A DNA stretch of 64,000 nucleotides from Phoronis australis (taxonomy: Eukaryota > Animalia > Phoronida). This document shows positions 1-57,341 of this stretch, piece by piece. The notes below the pieces were generated by a model. It saw only the letters and a program-made list of their open reading frames with translations, was not told the origin of the DNA and searched no databases. The stretch spans positions 99,815-163,814 of the forward strand of contig NMRA01000745.1 in assembly GCA_002633005.1 (NCBI GenBank), given 5' to 3'. Numbering within the stretch: position 1 is the stretch's first letter; every line of letters starts with the position of its first letter. Both the position numbers and the translations under genes were made by a program.

Positions 1-226
1 CTAATTTCAATTTCACGTGGCAGAGGTTGAGCTGTACACATGTGGGTAGTTGTTTACATTTATCGTAAACTATTTTGCCCGGGGTACGCCGCGAGCTAAG
101 TTGCAGAGTAAAACAAGAGGACGATTGCGAATACTGTAATTTATTAGGACGTAAAAAGGTAAAACTAACTAATACAGTCCTGCGCTTTCGTGGGCCTTTC
201 GACATAGAACGAGACTAACTGGAATT

Positions 227-1052
227 TTGATTTCAATTTCACGTGGCCGAGGTTGAGCTGTGCACATGTGGGCAGTTGTTTACATTCCCTTGTTCCGCTG
301 TTGTTTTCTTGCTTTAAAAAACAAAGTCACATTGAACTCTTTGGAAGGAACTGTTATTTCATTGTATTTATTTTTCTGTCGCTATTGTCGCGTACGTCTT
401 GGCTAATTAGAAACGCACACAAAACTAATTACATCAATACGACCTCTCAAACTTCGAACTAAAATAAATAAGATTACCCTGGACATTTTCACTGTAATTG
501 CTTAACGAAAATTGGGCAAGGGCTTGCCTCTGTCAGTTGTCTAGCTTGAATGGCAGCTGGCCGGCACAAAGGATGGCGTTACACAATGCCCAACGCTCCC
601 TAACATTCACCACTCCGACCCTACTCCGTTACGCTACANGTTGATTTCAATTTCACGTGGCCGAGGTTGAGCTGTGCACATGTGGGTAGTTGTTTACATT
701 CCCTTGTTCCGCTGTTGTTTTCTTGCTTTACAAAACAAAGTCACATTGAACTCTTTGGAAGGAACTGTTATTTCATTGTATTTATTTTTCTGTCGCTATT
801 GTCGCGTACGTCTTGGCTAATTAGAAACGCACACAAAACTAATTACATCAATACGACCTCTCAAACTTCGAACTAAAATAAATAAGATTACCCTGGACAT
901 TTTCACTGTAATTGCTTAACGAAAATTGGGCAAGGGCTTGCCTCTGTCAGTTGTCTAGCTTGAATGGCAGCTGGCCGGCACAAAGGATGGCGTTACACAA
1001 TGCCCAACGCTCCCTAACATTCACCACTCCGACCCTACTCCGTTACGCTACA
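227..1052. repeat. 412-bp direct duplication (227-638 / 641-1052) around a single N at 639; probable assembly overlap
   Basis: The copies differ at only 2 bases that I could find and abut an N. A third partial copy of the first ~55 bp lies at 5-60. Confidence 0.85.
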
Positions 1053-1942
1053 TGTATGCCAACTTGACTGCGCTAGCTACGCCAACGCTGCTGTCGCTCT
1101 CCATTTCCTCCCAACTAAATAGTCCTCGAGGTACGCTGCTACTTAAGATATATCTTGTCTTTCTTGTCTCGTTTTTGTCACCTGGACGATACTGTGTGTC
1201 AGTGGCGACGATGTGAGTGAATACCTACACATATTGTCGCTCCCAAAATGAGTTAAAGTGGTTCTTGGTTCTTAGGTGGGATGACTCAATTGGAGGTCCA
1301 ATGAATTATAAGAGAGTCAAGAACGTGAGCAGGTAGAACTTAGGAAAGATTTGGTATTTTTTATAATACCTTCGCCACATGCCAGGATTGTTATTTTTCA
1401 TTTTATTTTAATTTGATTTTCCAAAGAGAAACATTGGAAATATGACAAGAAACATGTTTCACTCCCTTCAATGCCAATAGCCTTCAACTAGACCTCTTGG
1501 ACGACAATACATGTTTGTATCGTGTGCGTTAATGTGTGCCGTGAGCGCATAAAAAGCACACATATTGGTTCCTTTTTTCTTTCTTCTCTACCCCCTGTTT
1601 CTTTCTTTTTTCTTCTTCTTTCCTTTTCTTTCGTTTTTCTTGTTTCTCTCTTTTGTCGCTCCTGATAGGATCCTTCATCACAATAATTCTCTGTTACTTA
1701 CTTTTGATTTGATTCCATGTTGAAGACCGCTGGGTAACGTCAACACATTTATAATCCCGACCACTATCAGCAAATACTTAGAGCCAATTCGTCGTCCTCC
1801 GAGTCAGCTTCTAATCGTCTCAGATGTATAGTACAAGGTATGACACTCGTCACGACTAGGAATTCCACGGGTGTCACTTCAGCCGTCCCTATCAAACACA
1901 TAAAAATGCGTTAACTTAAAAAAATGCGAAAGACAGGGATCT

Positions 1943-2353
1943 AACAAATCAAGAGCAATTGTTCTTTCTTCTGATAACATTTACGGTGTCCTGCTCCAGC
2001 GAGTTCGCTACAAACTCGCGGTCAAGGTACAAAAATCTTCCCAAAAAGCCGCTGGGTACTGTCAAGGTCTCAAACGGAAATTACCGATTTGTCACGGAAA
2101 GTCACAGCATCAACAAAGATACTATAAAATCTTTGACATCAATAACTCCACACTTATTCGTAACCTTCCGTGATAAACTGGCATTTGCCGTCCATCCGTA
2201 AATCACCGGATAATTTCGTACTGGCACATTGACAGTACGTTGCGGCCTTTGGGGAAGAATTTTGTGCTTTGACCGAGAATTTGATGCGAATTCGCTGGAG
2301 CAGGACATTGTAAATGCTATCAGAAGAAGGAACAATTGCTTATGGTTTGCTGA
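1943..2353. mobile_element. Foldback/MITE-like element with ~155-bp imperfect inverted arms and ~100-bp spacer
   Basis: 1943-2098 (agcaattgttctttcttctgataacatttac..ctgctccagcgagttcgc..) is the reverse complement of 2195-2353 (..gcgaattcgctggagcaggac..cagaagaaggaacaattgct). Confidence 0.7.
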
Positions 2354-3266
2354 AACCCTGTTTCGTGAGAATTTATTGAGTTCTGTGTTTGATATAGACG
2401 ACTGAAGGGAAGCACCCGTGGAATTCCTAGTCCCAAATGTGTACTGGGGACGATCAAAAGCTGAAGACGCATGCACTGGTGGTAAATGTTCACCAGTGAT
2501 GCGGCAGCGCTCCAACGCTATACTCCTAACAACTACTTGTTGCAAAATTTGGACGAGTTCATTTCCTGAACTGGCAGGGCTGGATTTTTTACGGCAGGCG
2601 TGCGTTCATTTGTGCTGGAACCTACGCTAGGACCTAGATAAAATCTTGCCGAAATCACGTGTTCTCATTTAAAATACACGACAATCTCTCACCTACTGCC
2701 GCGAAATCTAGCATTACTGGACAGGAGGGGGGTCTTTCTTTGGCAGAAACTGCTGTCACGCAGTCACTTAGTGGTTTTTCATGTCCTGTCGACGGCCGGG
2801 ATACCTGGGATTGAGCACAAAATAAGTTTTTACTACACATTTTTCCAAATTTACCTTTCCAGCAACATCACCTTCCTAGGGCACACGATCCTCGCATAGA
2901 TGTCGGTAGATAGGCGTATCTATTTTTCACTTTGTTTTTCTTTCTAATAACAATTACATAATGGTGAGCATTTATTGGCAACCGGCTGATGACCGCCTAA
3001 GGTACGATATCCGTGCAACGTGTATTGTTATATCCAACAAATACGCAACAAAGGAAAACAATGGTAGCGTCCCATAGGCGATAACCATGCGACGTGTATT
3101 ACTCCCGTCGCATGGATCTTGCAAGTTAAGCAATAGCTTGCAAAGTCCATACGACATAATTTTGCATTGGTCATAGCAACAGTCATGAAACTAAGTTTCA
3201 GAAAGTTGGAGGAAACTGATATTAGAAAATGTAATAATGTGGTCTTAAGTATGTTTCGTTTTGTAG

Positions 3267-3481
3267 CCGTAATCTAACGAATTTCGACTTTGAAAAGTTA
3301 ACTTTCAAAGTCTATCGTAATGGTGCAGTACAGAACCACGTACCGACAGTGCGTGGGCCCCTTGCCCCGAGATCACAGAACTCTTGGTGTGTTAACCAAT
3401 GGAGACTAGCGCAATCGATGAGCGATCGACCAGTAAAGTTCACCATCCCCGGCCCAATGACGATTGCAAACACTACTGCAG
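3267..3481 (+). CDS. Cobalamin-independent methionine synthase-like gene, first exon visible in window (internal, phase-2 start)
   Basis: ttgtag| acceptor, |gtatatg donor. Translates RNLTNFDFEKLTFKVYRNGAVQNHVPTVRGPLAPRSQNSWCVNQWRLAQSMSDRPVKFTIPGPMTIANTTA; the KxTxPGPxT motif is typical of the MetE C-terminal barrel. Confidence 0.85.
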
Positions 3482-4846
3482 GTATATGAGTTAGTTTCTT
3501 CATAACCCATATTTAGCAGAAACTCGATGCTTCCAAAATTTAATGTACATGTATTCTCAAAGCTAAGCCAATTCACGGGATACTGTATCCTTGATGCGGC
3601 ATATTCAGATTTTTCTAAGTAGGTTGGTAATATATCTCAACCGTGGTTACTAAAGTTGCATTTAAAGAGGTTTTGTGGATGAGCGCGTTTAGTTTGGTGG
3701 TCTGGTAGGAAAGTGGCGTTTACCTGTTGAAGCGGCGTGGTGGTGAAACAAGTTTATCATGATTTTTCTACACACGTGAGATGATACATGACCGTAGTCT
3801 TAGTCGCAATCAGATCCGGTTAAAGTAGTACATTCGGTTCCTGTCGGCTCCCCGACTCATTTCCAAACCAACACCATACTGCTTTAAAAGAAAACGCGCC
3901 CGTCAATCTCATTTTAGCACAATTCTGGGTTATCAAAAAAGTAACTTCTAAAACACCCTACTAGTAGGTAGCTTTTTACCTTTATCACAACTAGCCTCTC
4001 CGGGTACTTAAAGGGATGCTGAACCCTTTGTTTATGTGTAAGCATCGACCTCGTACTAAAATTATTGAAACTAGGCACTACTCAGTAGATCTTGAAGATT
4101 TTATTCAAATCCTTACAAAATCGATATTGGCTAAATCGGCACAAGAGACTAACGCTTTTGGGCGACTTAAGGTTACTGGACGACTGTAGGGAAATTCTGC
4201 TTCGTCTCAATCACCTGATTTTTTGTTGTTTAGAATCAAACAGTTAAAATACATCAGTGTGTCAACCAACCTTGTTTTTGGATGTTATGTTTACCAACTC
4301 TATTGCTGTGTCGGTCACCAGTCGATGGAATTTCGCTATCAGCAATGTGTGTAGCTTAGGTTTGTTTACTGACATCAATAAATGAACACCAGTGGCCTAT
4401 GTCACACTCAAAGGTGTGACACTTTTCAATACCATTACTGTCATCAGCCTCATATAACGTGAACAAATCGATAATCTAATTTATTAGTTTAATAACCTTT
4501 TTGATTCCCACTAGTGACACAATGGAATGCTTCATCGAGTTATCGTGTTTTTAGTTCCCCAAAATACCTCTAAGTATGCTATGTGTGTGCAGATTTACTT
4601 TCCCAAATTGTCCACAGCATGGCGCTGCATTAATATTTCATGATGGTAATGGAATGTTGTCAAGCAAATTGTTATCAGTGTTGAATGTTTCTCCAAGGGG
4701 TACTTGGGTTTCACATGATGTCTTTGTTTCACTATTTATTTTCAAGTTCATGATTATCTACGTTGGCCGAAGGGAATTGTAAAATTTTGCCAATGGGCCC
4801 TGATGATCAAACTCAAAAAGAAACATTCTATAGCCCTGACATTTAC

Positions 4847-5294
4847 TGGGGTTTGTTTTATGAAGAGTCACGTTAAGTCACAATTTTGGTCTTACGCTCC
4901 ACGTATCTATTCCTGAAATATATTTCGTCCTCACTTGAGCAAAAGTGCAAGCTCTCTGGGAGTATACACAAAAAATTCATTTCTTGGTTACTGTGATAAT
5001 TTATATAAAGTAAATTATTTCTTGACAGTGATGCACTCATAATTACTTGAGTAAAGACCTGTCGCAAGCTCCGCCCCCTAACGAAATGTCGGCACAGGAG
5101 CAATAAGTTTCACCCGGCAACGTTTTTGTCGGGTAAAATGGCGGCTTGGAAACGAAGGTGTGTCGAGAATGCAGCGTTCTGATTGGTCAATTAAGCTGTC
5201 ACTCAAAATCCTGGCGATAGGTCAAATGAAGTAGATGCGTAAGACCAAATTCCCGTCTTTTAAGTCTTAAACCACTTTCATGAAACAGGACCAG
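4847..5294. mobile_element. MITE in intron (Harbinger-like termini)
   Basis: Left gggtttgttttatgaag..ttaag..ttggtcttacgc is mirrored by right gcgtaagaccaaa..cttaa..ttcatgaaacaggacc. Confidence 0.55.
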
Positions 5295-5444
5295 CCTCTA
5301 AACTAAATCACTAATTTGGTTTTCGTTGTTCCAAAATAGGGTATCCACACTACTGTTGATCAATTTGTGTGCATTTTATTACTCGTAACTGGAACAATGC
5401 TGCTGTATAAGTAAATGAGAAGTTATGTTTTATATTTTTTTTAG

Positions 5445-5683
5445 ACGACTTTCATAACAACCCAAAAGAACTGAGTGAATCTTTGATAAAGTGCATCAAT
5501 CGCGAGGTTCGTGCTCTATCAGATGCTGGATGCAAACACATTCAAGTCGACGAGCCTTTGCTGGTGCGTATTCCGGAAGTGGCAATGGATTATGGTATCG
5601 ACCATCCTAGGAGGTGCTTTTAAGGAGTGGACAGCGATGTGACGAAGACAATCCATTTATGTTGCGGTTATCCTACACATCTG
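5445..5683 (+). pseudogene. MetE-like exon carrying the HxC zinc ligands and an in-frame stop
   Basis: tttag| and |gtaact splice sites, in phase with neighbouring exons. DFHNNPKELSESLIKCINREVRALSDAGCKHIQVDEPLL..DHPRRCF*GVDSDVTKTIHLCCGYPTHL. IQxDEP and HxC motifs present; TAA at 5621-5623. Confidence 0.85.
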
Positions 5684-6458
5684 GTAACTGTTTTGTTAAT
5701 ACATTGTACTTTCATGTAAGCAATAAAGGTGCTTGTGTGGGTCGAATGGAATGCTTTTAACAGAAGATCAAGCAGATTACAAGAGTAAGCTTACTTAGTG
5801 ATCCAGACAGGCTCGGCTATGTTATGTGCTTGAGGAACCTGGCTGCCGTGTTCCTCTGGGTTAAATCACCTGCGGAAGCTAACAGATTAGAAACTCGGCC
5901 TGTTTCACTGCACCTTTCTCTTTTTGACAAATGTATAGACGAACCGCTGAAGTCAGGAAGTCTTGTTTGTCCGGAACCACGATGGTATACCGAGGACAAT
6001 AACTGGCGAGTTTTCGAACCGATTACAATTATTTCCTCGTAAAAAAATTATCAGGATTACTTTGGCCCGAAACTAATGCGATAAAAATAGGTCAAAACAA
6101 ATGCGTTAAGGTTCGATTTTCTGATACACCGGTTAACTCATTTGGTTTTAGAGCTGTAAAATCTCACTGTTTCTAGAAATATACTTGATTTCAATCCCTT
6201 AACGTATTAAATCTGGTGTCGCATATTTCTTTTCTCACGTTAGTGATCTGTGAGTTTAGAAAGAACTGGTACTTTGCTATTGCTTGAAGTCAGATTCCAT
6301 AAGTTAGCTTGGCCAGGGAGATGTACATGTACATGTACTTGGCTAGCATTGCTTCAAGCCATAACGAACTATCAGTTCTACTGTAGTGCAAGGACTCGAG
6401 TAAGAAAGCTGTTGACAACGTTTCATAACACATTTCTATTTTTGCATGTGCAACGTAG

Positions 6459-6540
6459 GATGCTGAGAACTATCTCAAGGCAGAGCAAAAGGTGTATTTT
6501 GACCTGGCAGAAAAGCTTGACAACGCTGGTTTCGACGAAA
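6459..6540 (+). CDS. MetE-like penultimate exon
   Basis: cgtag| and |gtatgt; DAENYLKAEQKVYFDLAEKLDNAGFDE; phases fit both neighbours. Confidence 0.8.
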
Positions 6541-6703
6541 GTATGTGATATTTAATTATTGTCTATTCACATTACGAACAACAATAGCTTGGTTTGTAAC
6601 TCACACATATCTGCTTCAAACCTGACATTCAACAATAAACTTTACGAATTAGAAGCCTTTTATTTTGTTTTATTTTGTTTAACTTAAAATGATATTCTTT
6701 CAG

Positions 6704-6966
6704 TTTCCATCGAAGATGCTTGGCGATACAACGACCTCTCATTACTCGACAAGTTCAAGAAATCTACCATTGTTTTCGGGGTTCTTTGCATCGCGAGAAG
6801 TCAAGTGGAAACCGTCGACGAAATTGAGAAAAGAATCAAAGACGCTCTTAGTCATATTACCAGAGAAAGGCTCGTGATAGCACCCGACTGCGGCTTGGGG
6901 TTTCTTCCTAAAGACATCCTTCTCAGTAAACTGAAAAACATGGTGGAGGCGGCTACGAAATGTTGA
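6704..6966 (+). CDS. MetE-like terminal exon
   Basis: tttcag| acceptor. ISIEDAWRYNDLSLLDKFKKSTIVFGVLCIARSQVETVDEIEKRIKDALSHITRERLVIAPDCGLGFLPKDILLSKLKNMVEAATKC*. Contains the Glu ligand (SIE), the PDCG Cys ligand and the KLxxMV C-terminus. Confidence 0.9.
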
Positions 6967-32127: not shown

Positions 32128-32529
32128 GGGCCCAGTCTCCAATCTTTTTACTCGACATGGAACTCGAAACTAGGTTTGGCATTTTCTACTCTACTTTTGG
32201 GCGAACTCAAGATAAGTGTTTATTATTCAATGCTCGAGTACACAATAACTTACGTAGATAATTTATTGCCCTTAGTTCACAGTTTGTAAAACCAATATTA
32301 AAGCAATAAGATCGAGTTTGAACTCGAAATTTCGAGTTTTTACTCGAGTTTGTAGCACGAATATAAGGGTCTTCAAGGGCAAACTTGAATTAGAAACCCC
32401 TATGCATAAACTATAATGTATTCGAGCACAGTCTGATAACCAATTATCTTAACTTTGCACAAAAGGAGCAGAGAAATTGCCAAAAATAGTTTCGAGTTCA
32501 TTTCGAGTACAAAGAATCGAGACCGGGCC
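32128..32529. mobile_element. 400-bp MITE with ~45-bp TIRs (Harbinger-like GGCCC ends)
   Basis: ggcccagtctccaatctttttactcgacatggaactcgaaacta vs reverse complement ggcccggtctcgattctttgtactcgaaatgaactcgaaacta. Confidence 0.75.
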
Positions 32530-50246: not shown

Positions 50247-50269
50247 CAGTTTGGCCATGGCCCAGAGCC

Positions 50270-53200
50270 TTCAAGGACAAACGAAATACGTACAACAGTC
50301 TGGAATGTACACGGATTAGGTAGCAAAACAGAGAAAAAAAGTATCGTTGATTATTTATGTTCTTTTGATTTAGTTGGTGTTGCGGAAACTTGGGCAACGA
50401 ACGAAAATCAGTTTGATAACATTTTGCCTGGGTACAAATGTTTCAGTAAAGTTAATTCAAAGAAAAATAGGTTTGGTAGAAACTCCGGTGGAGTATGTGT
50501 GTTTGTAAAAAAATGTTTAGCTCGGCATGTAACTCGAGTGAAATGTGATTTCGATTTTGGTGTTTTTCTATTAATTGATAAGAGTCTATTGTGTACTGAA
50601 AATGATGTATTATTCTGTTGTGTTTATTTGCCACCTGAGGGTGTGACAGTGTATGAAAATCAAATTGAAAAGAATGGTGTAGAAATTTTGAGATGTGGTA
50701 TTGTAGATGCCCTTTTGAATGCCCATGATGATTTATCTCTTTTGGTTGCTGGCGATCTTAATGCTAGAATTGGCAAACTCTCCGATTATATTCAAGACAA
50801 CTCAGCAGAATTTTTGCCTTCAGGTGAATGGTACGCCTCAGATGCCTTTAATTTTCCAAGGATTAGTAAAGATCATGTTATTAATTCATTTGGAAAATCA
50901 CTTGTGAGAATGTGTTGCGAGTTAAATGTCCATGCATGTAACGGTAGATCTTCAGGTGATGAGGGAGGAGAGTTTACGTGTTTATCTATTGAAGGGTGTA
51001 GTGTAGTTGATTATGTGCTATTGTCCACTGAATTGTTTGATTTTGTATCAGATTTTAAAGTTGATTTATTGGATGTATCTGATCATCTTCCTCTTGTTTG
51101 TGTTTTTCACGGCTTCACTCAGTCACAGGATAACACTGTTCATAGCACAAATTATGTCGTCCGTGAATATGACAGAGTTAGATGGAAGGCTGAAAGATGT
51201 AGTCAGTTCATGTACAAGTTCGTCAGTGGGTTCCAAGTGTTCTCTAGTGATAAAGCGAATCTTATTGAGAGCTGTCGGGTTGAAGACGCTGTTCAGTTTT
51301 TAAATGAAATGTGTAAATCAGCTGCCTGCGACATGATTGTACACTCCAATGCTGCGGTTAAATTTGTGAAAATCCAACCATCATGGTGGGATGAGGAGTT
51401 AGAGGTGCTGAAAAGAGAGAGAAATTGTGCTTTGTCTGGTTTCCGACACTATAGTAATCAGGTTAATTTTAATAAGTACAAAGAACTGCAACAAAAATTC
51501 AAAGTGACTTTTAAGTCAAATGGAAAGTTATTTAAAGATGGACTGAGGAAAAACTTAATTGAAAATGTTAACAATCCCAGAGCGTTTTGGCAGCTAGTAA
51601 AATCATGCGATAGGAAAATGACGTCAGATACTTCTATTTCTGCTGATGAATGGTTTTGCCACTTTCACTCACTCTTAAACCAAGAAAATCCTGATAATGG
51701 ACGTATGATTGGACAAATAGAAAGAAACTTGGCAAGTCATGATGTGTATTGTAATGACTGTATGGTAGATGACCCAAATCAATTGAATCATGATTTTAGC
51801 GAAAGTGAGATTTTTGTCGTTCTTCGAGACCTACAGAACGGTAAGACTTCCGGTGTTGACGGACTAGTTTATGAACTTTTTAAGTCCACCAAAGATTATA
51901 TAACACCTGTTTTGACATACACGTTTAATAGTGCTCTAGGATCAGGGGAATTTCCTCAGTCCTGGTGTGACGCTATAATATGCATAAGCAAGGGGACGTC
52001 AATGACGTAAATAAGTATCGGGGTATTTCCCTTCTGCGTTCTCGGAAAAAATTTTACGAAACTCATAAACGCTCGTCTAACAAGTTGGGCCAACGATAAT
52101 GACTTATCTAACGAAGCTCAGGCTGGTTTTAGAAAGGGGTATAGTACAATAGACCAATTTTTTACCTTACAAGGAATTGTTCATAAGTACTTGAGTAAGC
52201 GCAGGGGCAGATTTTATGCTATATACGTGGATTTTTCTCGGGCCATTGACAGCATTTCACATAATTTTTTTGTGGAATAGGCTTCAAAAATAGGAATACA
52301 TGGTAGTGTTTTAAAATTGATGAAAAGTATGTATTCAAAGCTAAGAGCGTGTGTAAGAACTGAGCGTGGGTTAGCTGACTTTTTCAGTAATAATATTGGT
52401 ACTCGCCCAGGGTGTATGCTTAGCCTTTTTTTATTTAGTATGTATTTGAACGAGTTTGTTGATTACTTAAGAGAATCTTTAAATAGCGGAATTTACGTAA
52501 ATGAGAATGTTCCTCAAATTTGTATAATGCTATACGCTGATGATATGGTTGGTGGTGCAGAGACAGCATTTAAACTACAGCAACAAATTAACGCTCTGCA
52601 TGAATACTGTCAGGATTGGGGTATGAAAGTCAACCTTACGAAAACAAAAATAATGGTATTTAGAAAGGGCGGACCATTCAGAAAATACGAAAAATGGCAT
52701 TTTGGAAATGACAAAATTGATGTCGTCTCATCATATAAGTACCTGGGTATTTGCCTTACTCCTAAGTTAGTCTGGACGCAAGCTACGGAAACTTTGTCTC
52801 ACCAGGCACAGAAAGCAATTTTTTCAATTAAACGTTTTCAGTCAAAATGTGGACGACTTTCACCGAAAATTGCACTCAAGATTTTTGATAAAATGTTATA
52901 CCCAATCATTAGCTATGGAAGTGAGATTTGGGGATTTAAAGAATACTCTAGTATCGAGCGCGTCCAATTGAAATTCTGTAAGCAACTGCTGGGTGTTGGA
53001 AGTAACTGTCCAAATCATGCTGTCGAAGGTATCCAATTTATGTAAAGCTGTTTGTTAAACTGATCAAGTATTGGTTTAAATTGTTAAAAATGCCAGCACA
53101 TCGAAACCCAAAATCTGTCTCTGATAAGCTTGTCACATTGGATAAGGCTGGTAGGAAAAATTGGGCTTCATCTGTTAGGAATTTGCTGCAAAGGTATGGT

Positions 53201-56638: not shown

Positions 56639-56953
56639 CTACAAGATAATATATACACAAATATTCGGAATGTTTGATAAATTTCGTTGAGATTTTGTAC
56701 AGGATTTTGTTAAACAATTGCAGCTATGTCTTATATGAATATCATTTTCACTGTGGAAGCGCCATTAAAATTGCCTTGCCAGTAATGTACACATTTTTAA
56801 AAAACTAGAACAATTTGGAATGTTCAACTGCAGTACCCTGCTATGTAATTACTGAGCAGGGTTCTCGGCCTGTTCAGACACTACGTTTCTTGGAAGTTAA
56901 TCACTGGATACCTGAACTGCGATCAAAGTTTAACTTTGAAGAAGACCAATTAC

Positions 56954-57266
56954 CTGTGGACGTGAATATGACCCAGCAGGTTTCCGCTGTCTTATACGTC
57001 GATAGCCACTTATTCCTACTTATTTCACAAATCTGGTGCTGACTGCTGAAACTCACGAATGAGCATTGCTTTGATAAGCACAGGCAAAGACATCTCGTCA
57101 GTAAAGAACTATTGTATACTACGTCCACGAAACTCGGCAGGATTCTGTGACCAATGTAGGACCTTGCCTGAGAAAATAGTCCCTGAATGCTTTCCTGAGT
57201 GGACAAGGCTACGATACTGTACATGCATAATACGACTACGAGCGGGTGACTTTTGCAAGATGACAT
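56954..57266 (-). CDS. Gene B exon 1: signal peptide + PAN/Apple-like module
   Basis: MSSCKSHPLVVVLCMYSIVALS..ARSYIGHRILPSFVD..LTRCLCLCLSKQCSFVSFSSQHQICEISR..; five exons sum to 888 nt (295 aa + stop), open frame. Confidence 0.85.
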
Positions 57267-57341
57267 GTTCGTTACTGCGACAACCTCAACCAAGCACACT
57301 TACTGTGCGACCAATACGTGCTATCTGCGAAACCAGTTGCA

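Follow-up and report, generated by a model that had tools for sequence, protein, structure and literature searches.

The window analysed here, 64,000 nucleotides of contig NMRA01000745.1 of the phoronid Phoronis australis, contains on its plus strand a broken and partial copy of a spliced gene for a single-barrel protein of the MetE fold (Table 1; gene positions are window coordinates). Animals are taken to make methionine by the B12-dependent MetH and by the BHMT family. The best reading of the comparisons given below is that the window gene belongs to an unnamed family, possibly a fifth beside the four described families of core methionine synthases, and that this family is ancient and mislabelled in animals. 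It spans at least seven invertebrate phyla and tracks the animal tree. The intact product of about 350 residues is predicted to be a zinc-dependent homocysteine S-methyltransferase, which would take the methyl group straight from a small methylated osmolyte and not from folate; we put the probability of this at slightly below one half.

A single-barrel family in animals, protists and marine bacteria

The last coding exon of the window gene alone matches PF01717 (Meth_synt_2) with 53.3 bits against a cut-off of 21 (E = 3.4e-14), and when all six reading frames are searched with a profile of 43 relatives, the four exons of this gene are the sole matches in the window (E = 3e-41 to 5e-6, the next best having E = 7.8). 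The joined product aligns nearly without gaps with proteins of about 350 residues at 57–61% identity, beginning at about residue 85 of these relatives and ending where the barrel ends. The window lacks codons for the first 84 residues or so: neither tblastn with seven full-length relatives nor the family profile at maximum sensitivity finds the 5′ exon or exons in 1–3266 or in any other part of it. Identity of the window protein is 61% to the Lingula orthologue, 57% to that of Owenia and up to 54% to marine bacterial proteins, as against 27% to the one MetE compared and 25–28% to MesD.

Sequence searches gave 443, 3934 and 3168 matches, and the best 120 of each were listed. Among the matches listed, animal orthologues come from Nematostella, four coral genera, Rhopilema, Lingula, Owenia and two nemerteans, and on the deuterostome side from nine echinoderm genera, three hemichordates and Branchiostoma; dinoflagellates, Ancoracysta, the diplonemid Flectonema and marine bacteria are further carriers. 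No vertebrate, arthropod, nematode, mollusc or sponge is named among the best 120 of each search, which cannot show absence, and none of 39 viral pattern matches was confirmed as a family member. The 24 named animal orthologues are 343–409 residues long, and one coral model of 542 residues resembles two fused tandem copies. Since this length is too short for a folate barrel, the name of folate-dependent MetE, under which members already stand in database entries, is ruled out. The domains listed for the orthologues are PF01717 only, plus weak PF08267/PF01208, and rare fusions join the barrel to an S-adenosylmethionine (SAM)-dependent methyltransferase (P0229), to TenA (P0303) or to a weak glycosyltransferase-2 domain (P0283). 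The initial annotation of the window, which had proposed a PF01717 enzyme with a single barrel, closer to marine bacterial proteins than to two-barrel MetE and perhaps annotated in other invertebrates, is thus borne out in these respects, the other genes being auto-annotated under MetE names. The literature searched, in which most subscription journals are not covered, holds no paper on the family in animals; a bdelloid paper does not mention the family, and a coral salinity paper discusses BHMT only.

None of five members tested reaches the cut-off of any NCBIfam MetE-type model that it matches. NF006589, which we take to be the MesD model, gives 164–192 bits against a cut-off of 392, and NF003317, presumably the model of the split MetE catalytic subunit, gives 183–204 bits against 406, placing the members below the threshold for a split MetE. 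NF002119, which we assume to be the MesA model, gives 104–117 bits against 258, and the family is carried by animals, protists and marine bacteria, whereas MesA is found only in methanogens. TIGR01371, the model of canonical two-barrel MetE, gives 98–123 bits against 930, about one eighth of the cut-off. The best structural match of a model of the Lingula orthologue (predicted local distance difference test score 86.5) is MesD (Z = 42.1; root-mean-square deviation 2.0 over 330 residues), whose structure contains selenomethionine. MesD of Shewanella (PDB code: 3RPD; PMC7857596) resembles the family in its single PF01717 barrel of about 340 residues, its His/Cys/Glu/Cys zinc site and its homocysteine residues. 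However, the window protein is 25–28% identical to six proteins adjoining MesX, MesD membership lying at about 55% or more; the family has motifs of its own, PDWF, RENY, HxCCGYP and EDAH, and it occurs in animals and protists.

Canonical MetE (at least 676 residues), including that of the spider mite, shares the catalytic barrel and the zinc site with the family, but the orthologues are without the N-terminal folate barrel; the 5′ end of the window gene lies outside what was found. The spider-mite MetE is reported to be a horizontally transferred gene with introns and has been called the first in any animal (PMC4856440), whereas the present family is ancient in animals and not one recent gain. 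The dinoflagellate single-barrel proteins named B12-independent methionine synthase 2 (Karenia, Karlodinium and Scrippsiella) belong to the same family, are about 50% identical to its animal members and adjoin the animal clade. Judging from their names, these entries probably correspond to genes that Lin et al. 2022 describe as dysfunctional truncated MetE (PMC11197592). The MetE-fusion of Phaeocystis (Rao et al. 2024, PMC10861871) is likewise a eukaryotic core-type barrel whose donor is not known, but its barrel is preceded by a carrier domain and followed by an oxidoreductase domain, and it is responsive to B12, whereas the animal proteins stand alone; the words metazoa and invertebrate are absent from the main text of that paper, the tree figure and supplements of which may hold animal rows.

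The main tree (84 rows, LG+G4, rooted on MesD, with one long row, P0314, removed beforehand) groups the window protein with Lingula and Owenia (support 100/96) inside Bilateria (93/98), which are sister to Cnidaria (99/94), in an animal clade of 22 rows, four of them unlabelled (93/95). Animals, dinoflagellates, Ancoracysta and unlabelled rows cluster together (84/94), separate from the main marine bacterial clade (100/97), and a Pelagibacteraceae pair, flagged for its composition, sits closer to the eukaryotes (97/89). Rhopilema lies outside the animal clade in a FastTree tree of 209 rows and with the cnidarians in two later trees. Judged indirectly, from protein breakpoints of alternative gene models, the position of intron 2 is matched in a Nematostella-like (P0318), a coral-like (P0242), a Pocillopora (P0122) and an amphioxus (P0059) protein, and P0001 reads through an intron at the position of intron 3. 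The division of the animal clade into a cnidarian and a bilaterian half, with intron positions in common, makes it likely that the ancestor of the two already had the gene, either by descent from early eukaryotes or by a transfer that took place before these lines parted.

It is very unlikely that the lineage of this animal itself took the gene from a marine bacterium and that the introns arose afterwards. The identity of up to 54% with marine bacterial proteins would suit such a transfer, and the approximately unbiased (AU) test does not reject a tree with the window protein next to the bacterial clade as a whole (p-AU = 0.119), which tells against an ancestral gene. However, the best matches are animal proteins, the animal clade mirrors the animal tree, intron positions are common to cnidarians and amphioxus, and nesting of the window protein with four alphaproteobacterial rows, a group chosen after the tree was seen, is rejected (p-AU = 0.013). 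Of the two origins initially suggested, an intronised horizontal acquisition is not supported if it is meant as recent and lineage-specific, and a patchily retained ancient gene fits both the tree and the shared introns.

Putative reaction and methyl donor

The zinc and homocysteine residues of core methionine synthases and their roles have been described by Price et al. 2021 (PMC7857596). Among 47 aligned family members, the His, the Glu and the second Cys of the zinc site are present in all and the first Cys in 46; the equivalents of Glu484 and Asp599, two of the homocysteine residues, are invariant (47/47 each), and the equivalent of Ser433 is Ser in 32, Ala in 13 and Cys in two. The window frame holds all four zinc ligands, 3′ of its stop codon, and the Asp599-equivalent. 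The set of zinc and homocysteine ligands had been called complete; this is right for zinc but not for homocysteine, the Ser433- and Glu484-equivalents belonging to the missing 5′ exon or exons. The residues W22, F23, Y79, R198, Y241, K243 and D268 (Owenia numbering) are near-invariant and family-specific, and differ in MesD.

As in MetE, zinc would activate homocysteine as a thiolate. In place of a folate barrel, the family-specific aromatic and basic residues would bind a zwitterion of the form (CH3)3N+ or (CH3)2S+ –CH2CH2–acid. Candidate donors are beta-alanine betaine, dimethylsulfoniopropionate (DMSP), trimethyl-taurine and trimethyl-aminoethylphosphonate, and possibly glycine betaine as well. 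Besides methionine, the reaction would yield the demethylated compound, to be processed in bacteria by amine dehydrogenases, omega-aminotransferases and aldehyde dehydrogenases. A wider claim, which we hold as a possibility rather than as the probable case, is that the whole family is a folate- and B12-independent demethylase of C2/C3 marine osmolytes (the four compounds first named), serving as an extra methionine route in animals and as the first step of breakdown in bacteria. BHMT/Bmt (PF02574) is like the family only in the proposed type of reaction, the direct transfer of an onium methyl to zinc-activated homocysteine; it is an unrelated family, and a common function is hypothetical. Bmt moves methyl directly from DMSP and betaine to homocysteine (PMC12366255), and a cobalamin-dependent betaine demethylation has been described (PMC12478193). 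A Mes-like gene of Phaeobacter, which may or may not belong to the family, can be deleted with no effect on the shortening of the lag by DMSP (PMC12366255).

The neighbourhoods of the bacterial genes offer functional clues. From 80 genome and 32 metagenome loci examined, 111 past the identity filter fall into 47 clusters, 35 of which have a representative of at least 8 kb; 60 windows placed at even intervals in 12 carrier genomes and 18 long loci of distant relatives serve as controls. Marker genes occur in 14 of the 35 loci (11 without self-hits), as against 0/60 control windows (Fisher p = 5e-6) and 0/18 loci of distant relatives. Genes for the catabolism of beta-alanine, taurine or aminoethylphosphonate lie at eight of the 35 loci (five without self-hits; p = 0.006) and a polyamine-type binding protein at six (p = 0.002), the family gene often being the last in an operon for a polyamine-type ATP-binding cassette (ABC) importer. 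Among the markers that pass curated cut-offs are AptA, malonate/methylmalonate-semialdehyde dehydrogenase, Xsc (sulfoacetaldehyde acetyltransferase), PhnW, PhnA, PhnY, and choline and carnitine dehydrogenases; alanine dehydrogenase and dimethylglycine-dehydrogenase-like flavoproteins are also recurrent neighbours. The family member adjoins a gene of a DMSP-lyase family in a SAR116 genome (L079:5986-7684; seen once) and genes for carnitine dehydrogenase and a butyrobetaine/TmpA-like dioxygenase at L059:5881-11324, and it lies near genes for choline dehydrogenase and an HD-domain oxygenase in a Pelagibacteraceae genome (L069:6001-12987). An uncharacterised binding protein with a twin-arginine translocation (Tat) signal (L030:1366-2541 and relatives) is encoded near the gene in 21/111 loci (9/47 clusters), and the ligand of the L030 protein would indicate the substrate of the enzyme. 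The neighbouring pathways share a pattern, namely the breakdown of H2N–CH2CH2–acid compounds (beta-alanine, taurine and aminoethylphosphonate), the trimethylated forms of which, like the sulfonium analogue DMSP, would need demethylation or cleavage first. Beta-alanine betaine and DMSP have been measured in marine communities (PMC9321204), and an oxidative route is known for trimethyl-aminoethylphosphonate (PMC10574752).

Several points weigh against direct transfer from an osmolyte. No marker is found at 21 of the 35 loci, and the p-values are optimistic because the markers were chosen after the neighbourhoods were seen. The methyl-specific markers alone (dimethylglycine-dehydrogenase-like, choline, carnitine and DMSP-lyase family) are found at 4/35 loci, two without self-hits (p = 0.13). 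The nearest solved relatives of the importer bind putrescine or spermidine, with low scores, and the neighbours point to several backbones, so that no single donor is singled out. The conserved aromatic residues are predicted to line the pocket from their place after barrel strands, the enzymatic activity of every member is a prediction, and the functional clues, being all bacterial, may not carry over to animals.

The methyl-donor systems of 48 bacterial carrier genomes, many of them incomplete, point to the role of the enzyme in the cell. MesX (PF08908), the partner of MesD, is found in 0/48 of these genomes, the same search finding it in 10/151 other genomes, and the folate barrel PF08267 is above cut-off in one, there within a full MetE; the initial annotation had rightly left the methyl donor unnamed. 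Since the known carriers are missing and MetH/BHMT-type domains are present in 46/48 genomes, the enzyme looks accessory, not housekeeping. In agreement with this, dinoflagellates with a single-barrel metE are still B12 auxotrophs and do not induce the gene in low B12, with two exceptions (PMC11197592). The invariant catalytic residues, together with the bacterial context, suggest that the dinoflagellate genes may encode a working enzyme with another donor.

A less likely reading is that the zinc–thiolate chemistry is kept for another reaction, with a larger alkyl group or another thiol, for example in a step of C2/C3 amino acid or polyamine breakdown. Epoxyalkane:coenzyme M (CoM) transferase uses another thiol in the same fold. 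The strongest neighbour signals, the polyamine-type importer and omega-amine catabolism rather than methyl-group genes, are in line with such a reaction, as are the Ala in place of Ser433 in 13 of 47 members and a look-alike cluster in the Atlas auto-named 2-hydroxypropyl-CoM lyase (rank 22). However, all 47 members have both of the acidic residues by which the homocysteine amino group is bound, and the closest solved structure holds selenomethionine.

It is less likely still that the protein is a core methionine synthase like MesA–D, dependent on a separate methyl carrier such as a corrinoid protein, methylcobalamin or a MesX-like partner. Use of a methyl carrier is known or predicted for each of the four described core families (PMC7857596); MesD is the closest structure, and in P0229 the barrel is joined to a SAM-dependent methyltransferase domain. 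However, MesX is absent from the 48 carrier genomes, no corrinoid-binding protein and no single constant partner is found in the part of the neighbours that was annotated, and nearly all carriers have MetH/BHMT-type enzymes. A folate-using, B12-independent methionine synthase that would free marine invertebrates from B12 for methionine is highly improbable: the database names say so, a true transferred MetE is reported in the spider mite (PMC4856440) and the 5′ end of the window gene is unseen, but the 24 animal orthologues are too short for a folate barrel, the TIGR01371 scores lie far under the cut-off and the dinoflagellate carriers stay B12 auxotrophs (PMC11197592).

If osmolyte demethylation is true, it would tie animal sulfur and methyl metabolism to the marine cycling of betaines, DMSP and phosphonates, mean that animals from corals to amphioxus have an additional methionine route that has gone unrecognised, and explain the 'dysfunctional' dinoflagellate metE genes.

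State of the window copy

The four GT–AG exons join in compatible phases into a frame of 265 codons that ends at TGA (6964–6966), and an AATAAA sequence starts 21 nucleotides past this stop. The motifs HLC, ISIE (spanning the 6540/6704 junction) and PDCG lie where they had initially been placed, and the exons, phases and length of the frame agree with the initial annotation as well. However, codon 131 of the joined frame is TAA. Since this stop lies upstream of all zinc ligands, the window copy cannot encode the protein of about 265 residues that had been predicted from it.

Three RNA runs (X5, X6 and X7) and one DNA run (X1) with the same species label, four of the eight runs listed, were compared with the window over 3200–6620, using 18–19% of each RNA run. 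RNA of X5 and X6 covers exons A–C on a single strand, with joints that excise introns 1 and 2, and X7 gives no exon read in 19% of the run, being silent on expression elsewhere. All RNA reads have a Glu codon at 5621 (9/9 in X5 and 7/7 in X6), as has the sole covering X1 DNA contig. Therefore, the check on RNA upholds the two introns but not the stop codon of the window, and the species expresses a version of the gene that is intact at codon 131. In an 85-nucleotide stretch of exon B, five sites of the window disagree with every covering read, two of them damaging, and the X1 contig has 16 mismatches to the window in 701 positions. Given the intact codon in the reads and these differences, the copy in the window is probably either a null allele of the expressed gene or a duplicate of it that has decayed. 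Against this, the TAA is present in no read or contig compared, as would be expected if it were an assembly error in a locus that is itself intact. Such an error is improbable, since the five mismatches in exon B and the 16/701 of the X1 contig look like a distinct haplotype or duplicate and not like one bad base; moreover, tandem duplicates are common in the family, several copies apparently lying on one contig in Lingula, Saccoglossus, Glandiceps and Lineus. Being broken and partial, the window copy is the least useful member of the family. Contamination as the source of the gene is ruled out by the spliced, stranded RNA joints and the flanking animal repeats, and the gene is a genuine animal gene, as had been proposed.

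Table 1. Exons, introns and damaged codons of the MetE-fold gene, in window coordinates
Feature	Position	Strand	Remarks
Exon A, internal	3267–3481	+	Acceptor AG at 3265–3266 splits a codon (phase 2); aligns to residues ~85–155 of the Owenia orthologue; RNA depth in X5 and X6 and joint to exon B
Intron 1	3482–5444	+	1963 nt, GT–AG, phase 1; RNA joint in 7 (X5) and 6 (X6) reads
Exon B	5445–5683	+	Asp599-equivalent (DEP at 5549); zinc ligands His (HLC at 5654) and Cys (5660); contains the in-frame stop
Pro codon 126	5606–5608	+	Predicted helix; L/A/V/I in 47/47 family members; at 5607, Leu in 11/11 (X5) and 6/6 (X6) reads and in the X1 contig
In-frame stop TAA, codon 131	5621–5623	+	Upstream of all four zinc ligands
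Intron 2	5684–6458	+	775 nt, GT–AG, phase 0; RNA joint in 10 (X5) and 4 (X6) reads
Exon C	6459–6540	+	Placed by frame, alignment to relatives and RNA coverage
Intron 3	6541–6703	+	163 nt, GT–AG, phase 1; predicted, beyond the stretch compared with reads
Last coding exon	6704–6966	+	Zinc ligands Glu (ISIED) and Cys (PDCG at 6883); stop TGA

Codon 185 of the joined frame, in the last coding exon and outside the stretch compared with reads, is Trp, the residue being His in 46/47 relatives (EDAH motif). Intron 1 contains a short high-copy repeat (about 5040–5269) with a DNA depth of up to about 18,000 as against 12, and with RNA of both strands in all three RNA runs.

Other features of the window

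Single-N gaps at 639 and 13114 lie between near-identical duplications (227–641/641–1055, 99%; 11640–13113/13115–14599, 95%), which are likely assembly overlaps of two haplotypes. A frame on the minus strand (56904–57299) has a weak PAN-domain match under the cut-off (E = 0.004), and 22 other long frames of the window have no Pfam match. Imperfect palindromic elements at 1854–2432 and 32129–32529, about 69% self-complementary, are possibly miniature inverted-repeat transposons. An element of the long interspersed nuclear element (LINE) type on the plus strand (50247–53045) consists of an endonuclease open reading frame (PF03372, E = 2e-10) and a reverse transcriptase open reading frame (PF00078, E = 4e-14) in two frames.

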